A stretch of 57,855 nucleotides of DNA, from positions 693,302-751,156 of the forward strand of contig NMRA01000176.1 of assembly GCA_002633005.1 (NCBI GenBank), written 5' to 3'. The notes below the pieces were generated by a model. The model was not told where the DNA came from, ran no database searches, and worked only from the letters and a program-made list of their open reading frames with translations. Below are positions 12,101 through 15,100 of the stretch, piece by piece (positions within the stretch are counted from its first letter, which is position 1; each line of letters opens with the position of its first letter). The translations under genes were made by a program, and so were the position numbers. This stretch comes from Phoronis australis (Eukaryota > Animalia > Phoronida).

Positions 12101-15100
12101 GTCATGATGAGTAATTCTAGCTACATTAATGTTGAATTGATTGTGCTTGCACATAGCCATCATGTTGAGGAATTCCAAGTTATCTTAATTTTGATTATTT
12201 TTGGCGTTGCACTAGGGTCCATCTCCAGATTAAAATATGTTAAACAATTGTACCCATGACTCTTGTATTCTAAGTTCTTTGTCAAGATACTCATTAAATT
12301 ATGGAAGAGCACATGTTAGCTGCATCTAGCTGTAGTTAATGGAGCCAGCACTGTGTGAAACCTGAACCAAATTGTTCTTGTTGTCAACTTCATACTATAA
12401 TTGGCAAAGTTAGAGAAGTTACTTTATTTGTCCTGTAGTCGTGGAGGTGGGGCTAACACGCCCGAGAGCCCGCAGCCGATCTACAAGAACCCGACCAACC
12501 TGTGGGAGAAGTTTGCCAACAAGATGTGGGACATAAACCTGTCCAAGGGTGCGAAGAAGAATAAGGAGGTGGTGCTTAAGGAAGCCAATGAGCAGTGGAA
12601 CTCTCGCTACAAGCATAACAACCTGGCATTGATGGACTTCATGGACAAGCCCATTCCTGGTGGGGCACCTACAGCCAGGTACATAAGTGTTAACAAAATC
12701 CATGATATACCGTGGGACAGGTCGTGTTTCTAACGGGGAAGATTCATGACGCATCATTGCAGCTTCTCCGAGGATGAATCTTTCGTGCACTCAGCAGTGG
12801 TGATGGGAAATTCTAGGTCATGTAGTTTGAATATTTTGATGTCTTCTGCTGGGGTACTGGTATACACATTCCTATACCTTGATGTTGCCTACAGTTAAGT
12901 GGGGTGTATTGCTGGTGGCGTGTGGGCCTCGTGCGTTCCTTTTTGAAGACTCGTGCCAGACGGAGCGTCCACAGCTATTTAGAGTGTATGGGTTTTGTTG
13001 TGTGTGTTCTAGGTGATGTACTAAAGTAGCAAGCACACTTAACTTGATGGGCACCTGTGAGAGGGGGTCTGTGAATATGGTTTATATGTGTGTCATATCG
13101 GGCAAAACTCACCTGTGAGACGGGGTCTGTGAATATGGTATATGTGTGTCATATCAGGGGCAACACTCACCTGAGGGAATGGAACTTGTACCATCAGAGA
13201 GGGAATTTTGTGGTTGAGGGGAAAATCTCCAATCCCCAATTGCCATACCTCATTGGCAATGGCTCAAATAGCCAAATTGACTTTTTGCATGAGCGATCAT
13301 TCTAACATTGAGAGGACTTCATTAATCATTGGAAGGAACTTTTGAGTGTGATGAGGTTAATTTTACATGAATGAGGCCAATATTTGACCTCAAAATCAAG
13401 GCACTGTGGTCTCTGCATATGGTTAATCGGTGGAGATGGAGTTATTGACAAGTCTTGTACCTGGATGTTGCGAGGGGCTTGGTATATGAATGTCTAATAC
13501 GGATATGGTTCTACTAGCATTATATGTAGAAATGCCCGATGTTGTCAAGTCAGCTTGTTATCCACAATTTTTTTAAAAAACGTTGGTTTATTTGCAAGTT
13601 TAGTATGTGTTTTCTCAGAATCGCTGCATGGTTTGCAAGACATCTTTTTGATGTTGTGATATGTCATTATAACAGAAACGAGCGTCCAATGTCATTATGT
13701 GTGTGTGCGTGTGTTTGTGCCTGTGTGCCTGTGACTACAGCAAAGTTATTTTGAATGTCAAAGTCGTGACCTTTTTTATCTATACACAGCAGCGCCAGAA
13801 GCCCTGCCCCTAGTCAGTCGCGTAAGAGAGCAGCTGCTAATGCCGCTCGCGATGCCAAGGTTGAAGAGGAAGAAGATTTAACAAAGGATATGCCTGACCC
13901 GCCTTCTGAGTCGACTTTAAGTGAGGTCCAACTGCCGAAAAGAGGTGAGTGTTACTTGAAAGACTCTTCGCTTATGGCTTAAGGTCATGTAGGATCCCAG
14001 AAAATGTCAAAATTTGGCTAATTTTGAAAATCATCTCGCAAATAAATGACTGATGGATTCCTATGAAATGGTCATATACTATGTTTCATGCACAGTTCTC
14101 ACTCCACTTCTGCATGAGAGACTAAAAAATGGAACTTTCGGGAAAATATGAGAAAACTTGAAAGTTTTATAAAACGAATGAAAAACAGTGACTTAGGAAA
14201 CTACCAACGTTTTTGAGATTTCATCTTGAACATTAACATCTTGAACATTAACACCCACCAATATTTAGTCATGTTGTTCATACCAGTTTTGTTATAAATG
14301 TACCCAGCTCCTTTTCCCAACATTTTTCGAAAAAGACATGGTCACGTGACCCAATTTATGGGAGATTGGNNNNNNNNNNNNNNNNNNNNNNNNNNNNNNN
14401 NNNNNNNNNNNNNNNNNNNNNNNNNNNNNNNNNNNNNNNNNNNNNNNNNNNNNNNNNNNNNNNNNNNNNNNNNNNNNNNNNNNNNNNNNNNNNNNNNNNN
14501 NNNNNNNNNNNNNNNNNNNNNNNNNNNNNNNNNNNNNNNNNNNNNNNNNNNNNNNNNNNNNNNNNNNNNNNNNNNNNNNNNNNNNNNNNNNNNNNNNNNN
14601 NNNNNNNNNNNNNNNNNNNNNNNNNNNNNNNNNNNNNNNNNNNNNNNNNNNNNNNNNNNNNNNNNNNNNNNNNNNNNNNNNNNNNNNNNNNNNNNNNNNN
14701 NNNNNNNNNNNNNNNNNNNNTGAGATAGGCTTTGGTCATATGTTGTTTAGTTCTTAGATGAGATAGGCTTTGGTCATATGTTGTTTAGTTCTTAGATGAG
14801 ATAGGCTTTGGTTATATGTTGTTTAGTTCTTAGATGAGATAGGCTTTGGTCATATGTTGTTTAGTTCTTAGATGAGACAGGCTTTGGTCATATGTTGTTT
14901 AGTTCTTAGCGAAATTACATGCAGTGCCGTTCAAGATTAGAAGTTGAATTTTATTCTCAAAAACATTTTTGCTTCTGACCTCAGCCATGAACCAAAACCA
15001 AAGAGTCCCGAATTTTTTATGGGCTTAAATAAAACATTTTACAAATGGTTAAATACATTTTTGTGCTTCTTCTTTAAAGCTTACGAGCAAATTTGACAAA

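Follow-up and report, generated by a model that had tools for sequence, protein, structure and literature searches.

An extra coding exon with a predicted HMG-like module in the SMARCC gene of Phoronis australis

The SMARCC gene of Phoronis australis carries an extra coding exon that is included in the main SMARCC form of the two informative RNA samples and is predicted to encode a small three-helix module, HMG-like rather than a canonical HMG box. Judged by sequence comparison, the exon appears to be lineage-restricted, with no counterpart in the other 191 SMARCC proteins examined. SMARCC is a deeply conserved, essential scaffold, and across the examined set, which ranges from corals through molluscs to lizards, the linker that receives the exon is near-constant in length. 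The module represents a natural experiment on the tolerance of this linker, which connects the N-terminal module with SWIRM, and on a possible effect of added DNA contacts on BAF targeting.

The extra exon and its expression

The window, i.e., the whole stretch of 57,855 nucleotides that was analysed, contains a complete SMARCC gene on the + strand, extending from about 3142 to past 39563 according to tblastn with five homologues. Exons for the N-terminal module, SWIRM, SANT and the coiled coil follow one another in a single gene at 45–92% identity to the homologues (tblastn), and this domain order, read from the sequence, is that of a SMARCC gene. Within the N-terminal exons (MarR-like/BRCT/chromo module; 3142..10313, + strand, tblastn with five homologues), Pfam recognised, on 7550-7795, SWIRM-assoc_2 along with a match to BRCT_2 below the cut-off. 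Then comes an exon with the basic tract KRKRSPSP...KKKRK (11678..11775, + strand), placed by the read joints 11110>11678 and 11775>12439 as well as by tblastn to homologues, and after it the extra exon itself (12439..12678, + strand; 240 bp, 80 codons, phase 2 at both ends), recognised by its splice sites, frame, spliced reads and codon use. It is flanked by GT-AG introns of 663 bp on the 5' side (11776..12438, + strand) and 1111 bp on the 3' side (12679..13789, + strand), both defined by RNA reads. The downstream exon (13790..13944, + strand), with RKR and an acidic 10-residue motif, is delimited by the joint 12678>13790 and, by eye, by loose read ends past 13944; reads leave it at 13944 and continue into the next SMARCC exon near 15487. 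The SWIRM and SANT exons lie at 16231..21431 (+ strand, tblastn), with a Pfam Myb_DNA-binding match on 21276-21431 and no match in a scan of the first SWIRM exon alone (46 aa). The C-terminal exons, SWIRM-associated and coiled-coil, occupy 33135..39563 (+ strand; 56–92% identity to homologues in tblastn).

Several other features were observed in the window. The intron after the extra exon contains a direct repeat of two 58-nt units that are 83% identical (13052-13167). A tandem repeat of about 38 bases (14721-14910) runs into a 351-N assembly gap (14370-14720), and further assembly gaps are present at 20358-20638. Short intronic repeats at 9683-9903, 11246-11377 and 14202-14330, which collect reads from elsewhere on both strands and with loose ends, likely represent a dispersed small element. 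Antisense within the 11.7-kb SMARCC intron that follows the SANT exon sits an intronless ORF of 478 codons (22821-24254, - strand) in which Pfam recognises ankyrin repeats and, at the C-terminus, a SOCS box (ASB-type); this gene is nested and was probably retroposed. Downstream of SMARCC and facing it are the exons of a serine beta-lactamase-family gene (PF00144; 52112-53861, - strand) with a signal-peptide-like start.

The initial annotation had proposed the 240-bp exon from its good splice sites, its phase 2 at both ends and its coding-like GC3, and this proposal is confirmed. The exon is preceded by AG and followed by GT, it reads through in the SMARCC frame from the KRKRSPSP exon to the 13790-13944 exon, and its omission preserves that frame. 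Its GC3 of 0.74 compares with 0.38–0.74 in seven other read-confirmed exons and with at most 0.54 in intron windows of equal length (n = 12,059). Under a synonymous-codon model trained on the other exons of the window, its codon use scores +31 bits versus a mean of -19 and a maximum of 4.5 bits in intron windows (n = 1,961). The extra exon is coding sequence with the codon habits of its host. A second copy was not found within the window. The read differences listed in the exon are a synonymous change at 12454 and an Ala>Thr change at 12665, in the Gly/Pro tail; none is listed inside the HMG-like core when the RNA runs are compared with the window.

The RNA sample comprised three raw runs and one contig set (X1-X4) chosen by species label, with 18–19% of each raw run read. 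X1 and X2, which come from the same study, were informative; X3 and X4 have almost zero depth over these exons. A splice joint was listed only when carried by at least three reads from two starts. Both inclusion junctions named beforehand are present in stranded sense reads, 11775>12439 in 12 reads of X1 and 5 of X2, and 12678>13790 in 5 and 11, respectively, which gives inclusion totals of 17 and 16 reads (33 summed over X1 and X2). These counts are comparable to the 7–16 reads per run at upstream SMARCC junctions, and the read depth on the extra exon, around 20–23, is not below that of the neighbouring exons. The skip junction 11775>13790 is absent from the joints listed for the four runs, where up to two reads per run could fall under the threshold; by our arithmetic, inclusion would still be about 80% even if two skip reads per run were hidden.

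The exon had been described as skippable and as a source of splice-switchable isoforms. This part of the initial annotation is unsupported, because only inclusion junctions are listed and no skip junction, and in the samples measured, skippability is a property of the frame only. Regulated skipping of a cassette exon, by which a single gene would make two SMARCC scaffolds with different functions, would agree with the symmetry of the exon, with the few tissues sampled and with the room that the listing threshold leaves for up to two skip reads per run, but it is made very improbable by the 33 inclusion reads without a listed skip in X1 and X2 and by a depth matching that of neighbouring exons. 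Skipping had also been expected to yield the short linker of human SMARCC1/2; the frame would indeed be kept, but the remaining linker would have 44 aa, a little above the 34–42 aa found in homologues.

A predicted HMG-like module

The core of the module begins with the K-N-P motif, ends with helix 3 and is placed at 12485..12649 (+ strand) on the grounds of AlphaFold2, hhalign and charge. AlphaFold2 predicts three helices, with a pLDDT of 75 when given the exon sequence only; adding five relatives of the exon (described in the next section) raises it to 93.5. In the model built from this six-sequence alignment, the predicted helices lie at about 12500-12544, 12563-12610 and 12620-12646 and comprise 15, 16 and 9 residues. 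The core holds 11 K/R versus 7 D/E, a net charge of +4, the HMG-box controls ranging from 0 to +12.

Sequence searches with the exon returned 0 Pfam families at E<=10, HMG_box and CHDNT included, and nothing under E 0.17 against the PDB. In a fold search of 48,161 chains with the second model, HMG boxes make up 6 of the 50 matches listed, at 12–18% identity; in five of them the alignment covers model residues 5-59, in the sixth 5-56. The best is HMGB1 box A (Z 4.8, rmsd 3.6 Å, 52 residues), and the others are PMS1, HBP1, HMGX2, SOX11 and HMGB3; all fall at Z 3.8–4.8 and rmsd 3.5–4.1 Å over 51–52 residues, tied with unrelated helical proteins. For the first, single-sequence model, HMG boxes account for 7 of the 50 fold matches listed. 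They also form 6 of the 48 listed Foldseek matches, none of which has an E of 0.001 or better, and 2 of the 50 listed viral fold matches. The check by AlphaFold and Foldseek that had been suggested for the exon thus returned three confidently predicted helices, but the fold matches are insignificant, with Z under 5.

Profiles were compared with control HMG boxes taken from viral contigs, for which 20 of 31 loci were aligned. The others were dropped, six because of stops or the lack of an HMG pattern and five as near-duplicates; the four that were tested all pass PF00505. In hhalign, the profile of the exon family matches these 20 boxes with a probability of 67% (score 27.6, 62 columns) in an alignment that is gap-free up to the Trp, and its P of 5e-5 amounts, by our scaling, to about E 1 at a Pfam-sized search. 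As controls, 200 column shuffles scored at most 17.9, the reversed alignment 10.0 and 69 windows of the SMARCC alignment at most 11.8. Removal of P0003, the most HMG-like relative, lowered the score to 22.2, and the extra exon alone versus the HMG profile gave a probability of 0.4%, which is not significant.

The likeness resides in the core of helices 1 and 2, where the alignment places the elements K-x-P, aromatic residue, Phe, x27 and Trp in the register of HMG boxes. The F-x27-W spacing of the exon is that of 14 of the 20 boxes compared, and seven of the eight invariant positions of the family (K, P, K, K, A, W, L) stand in HMG register. The hydrophobic intercalating residue of helix 1 appears to be replaced. 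The position after the helix-1 Tyr, which we take to be the Phe102-type wedge of HMGB1 box B, is hydrophobic in 20/20 HMG boxes and E, Q or D in 6/6 family rows, the extra exon having Glu. Eleven positions before the Trp, at the start of helix 2, Lys or Arg occurs in 6/6 family rows (Lys in the exon) and in 0/20 HMG boxes. By its sequence the module also stays below the profile cut-offs of the HMG box (PF00505/PF09011). The HMG-box-like domain proposed for the exon thus holds for the helix 1-2 register, the F-x27-W spacing and the short helix 3, but not for HMG-box membership, as there is no Pfam match. We consider a remote HMG ancestry, short of such membership, to be probable.

A three-helix fold of this kind might also serve as a protein–protein module, one that contacts a lineage-specific partner or packs on the MarR/BRCT/chromo module, and not as a nucleic-acid binder. 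The lost wedge residue and the modest net charge would suit such a role, three-helix interaction domains score alike in the fold search (Gal11 KIX at Z 4.4 and ARC105 at Z 3.9), and HMGB1 itself contacts a protein partner without its wedges, according to PMC2441811. We nevertheless regard this reading as unlikely, given the seven of eight invariant positions in HMG register, a profile that favours HMG boxes over the SMARCC controls, and the basic tract that immediately precedes the module.

Lineage restriction and putative origin

The N-terminal exon query gave 882 matches to SMARCC-type proteins, of which 120 were used and combined with 71 from cluster look-ups, the latter including isoforms of octopus, abalone, scallop, oyster, tick and sea cucumber. 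The resulting 191 proteins cover a brachiopod, a nemertean, two annelids, molluscs, arthropods, a hemichordate, a sea cucumber, corals and lizards, a count that overstates independence because many of the rows are isoforms of a few lizards. The linker was measured from RKRSP to DLTKDM in the 163 proteins that have both anchors, the other 28 being fragments or lacking an anchor. It spans 34–42 aa in 162 of these 163, and 124 aa in Phoronis australis. The sole exception, P0042, is a spider record labelled unverified/contamination, with a linker of 79 aa and unrelated sequence. On none of the 191 proteins does the profile of the exon family score above 2.2 bits, and this, together with the outlying linker, supports the claim of a lineage-specific exon made in the initial annotation. 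A word-indexed search of the extra exon against proteins of 140-2000 aa returned 17 candidates, none at E<=1. Thus, an orthologous exon was found neither by the word-indexed nor by the family-profile protein search, although absence from such searches is weak evidence, as the 50% cluster library could mask a SMARCC that has the insert but is represented by another protein of its cluster. In a quick tree, the SMARCC of the window falls within the lophotrochozoans, not in the mollusc clade, and has a loose placement near Lingula, Tubulanus and siboglinid annelids, with weak local support. Searches of open-access literature, supplements aside, gave no report of such a SMARCC exon. Domain gain by exon capture is known already, and so are HMG boxes in other BAF subunits, namely SMARCE1 and PBRM1.

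A HMMER search of 1.84 billion representatives identified four relatives of the exon at E 6e-6 to 6e-4, with 31–44% identity to it. Cluster look-ups and a search with the family profile extended two of the four families, the profile search contributing only 4 further members. Every relative is an unnamed ORF, located on an ENA or JGI contig of 0.6–3 kb. They have K-x-P, K, N, K, A, W and L in common with the exon, and no Pfam domain was recognised in the five that were scanned, transposase and HMG families included. One relative, P0003, reads as two tandem domain copies. In another family (P0004, P0009, P0131-P0137), variants that are 80–95% identical where compared leave the common frame or stop at differing places, a pattern that would fit decaying multicopy mobile-element DNA. 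Because the relatives are ORFs on such short contigs, these breaks could instead stem from errors of assembly or from gene calling on eukaryotic DNA. Searches of viral contigs and prokaryote genomes found no relatives. In the ESM Atlas there was no usable match for the exon, and three matches at 0.82 for one relative are leads only. Two candidate loci were rejected: L002, which matches by chance within a bacterial ORF, by eye a sirtuin, and L001, a 25-codon match outside any listed ORF.

Viewed as a group, P0002-P0005, P0007-P0009 and P0130-P0137 carry an HMG-like domain without the helix-1 wedge, situated near the start of short-contig ORFs, and frequently a short Q/K-x-x-[IL]-x-x-F-F-like motif adjoins it. 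The extra exon and its relatives would thereby indicate an unnamed HMG-like domain family without the usual intercalating residue.

The multicopy-looking relatives make a mobile-element origin of the extra exon somewhat likely, though the introns hold no element remnant: the 11 relatives match only the exon in tblastn, with no remnant of their ORFs in the flanking introns, and no long terminal inverted repeat was found in the introns around it. Capture from a transposon, as proposed initially, is consistent with these relatives, but the transposon identity of the donor is not borne out, as neither a catalytic domain nor a terminal repeat was seen. A Zator-like transposase as a putative donor received no support in the one search made.

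An exonised fragment of a mobile element might be no more than a passenger tolerated in a disordered linker, without any selected function. The insertion lies outside the folded modules, as far as these are described in PMC8099880, and the orthologous exon on which selection could be tested was not found in the protein searches. Set against these points, the strong host codon bias, the high inclusion, the intact predicted fold and a core in which no read difference is listed make the passenger reading distinctly doubtful. Another reading assumes that a sequence-specific DNA-binding domain of a transposon still recognises the ends of its element and steers BAF to dispersed copies. Points in its favour are the relatives, which look multicopy and carry the domain close to the beginning of the ORF, the two apparent tandem copies in P0003 and the recurrent capture of transposase DNA-binding domains by tetrapod host genes, as outlined in 10.1101/2020.05.07.082677. 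On the other hand, the relatives lack a transposase domain and are only 31–44% identical to the exon, no donor element was found, and one small domain without a wedge would probably give little specificity, so that we hold this reading to be quite improbable. A broader version, according to which an HMG-derived DNA-binding domain of a transposon, outside Pfam, was captured into the BAF scaffold of one spiralian lineage and resides in its main isoform, also seems to us doubtful. If it were true, each BAF would carry extra DNA readers by which structured DNA or donor-element copies are targeted for remodelling, and transposase capture would have rewired a core chromatin machine and not a transcription factor.

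Putative function and comparison with known systems

The explanation that we favour as a whole, though tentatively, is an added low-specificity, charge-driven and non-bending nucleic-acid grip on the BAF scaffold. The best guess of a non-bending tether is made because the wedge is replaced, the core charge is +4, a basic tract adjoins and the layout resembles that of CHD4. The module would sit in the flexible linker leading from the N-terminal MarR/BRCT/chromo module to SWIRM, right behind the Lys/Arg tract. BAF155 is predicted to be disordered outside its N-terminal module and the parts resolved by cryo-EM, and by that description, taken from PMC8099880, the linker with the extra exon falls outside the folded parts. 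The Glu in place of the wedge and the conserved Lys/Arg at the start of helix 2 would allow DNA to be held by charge without wedging or bending, similar to what has been proposed for the unit of basic tract and HMG-like domain in CHD4. In HMGB1, replacement of the wedges by alanine keeps DNA binding and almost abolishes bending, and box A has one wedge only, as stated in PMC2441811. Candidate ligands would be linker DNA and other polyanions, among them RNA and poly-ADP-ribose, and the extra grip might prolong the residence of BAF on chromatin. As for its origin, a phase-2 intron may have received the symmetric exon from a multicopy, probably transposon-encoded ORF, whose N-terminal domain would be the source, long enough ago for host codon use to have been acquired.

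The closest known system is the SWI/SNF-BAF scaffold itself, SMARCC1/SMARCC2 (BAF155/BAF170, Moira), which is the same gene with the same order of modules. It differs in that its linker of 34–42 aa has no folded module, whereas that of Phoronis australis contains a predicted one within 124 aa. The canonical HMG box (PF00505; HMGB1, SOX, HBP1) shares with the exon module the K-x-P start, an aromatic residue at the Tyr position, Phe three residues on and Trp 27 residues later, and helices 1-2 of the exon model superpose in register. The exon module departs from it in having no Pfam match, a helix 3 of 9 residues, an rmsd of 3.5–4.1 Å, Glu in the wedge position of helix 1 and Lys where helix 2 begins.

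CHD4's HMG-like domain at the N-terminus (CHDNT, PDB 2N5N) is likewise HMG-like, belongs to a remodeller and is flanked by charged disordered regions. To judge from the title of a cited paper, it reportedly binds PAR. According to PMC11555702 and PMC9726900, it binds nucleic acids, DNA with moderate affinity, and supports the rate of remodelling and sliding. Pfam gave no CHDNT match for the exon or five relatives, 2N5N is not among the fold matches listed, and the exon module belongs to a non-catalytic scaffold and is lineage-restricted. The likeness to CHD4 is an analogy of layout, homology being at most conjectural. Host-transposase fusions, such as the KRAB-transposase fusions (10.1101/2020.05.07.082677) and the F-box genes with a Tc1/mariner HTH (PMC12062965), likewise have a small domain spliced into a host regulatory gene. 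The exon module differs from them as an internal, symmetric exon of 80 codons in a conserved core chromatin gene, with a donor that is putative.
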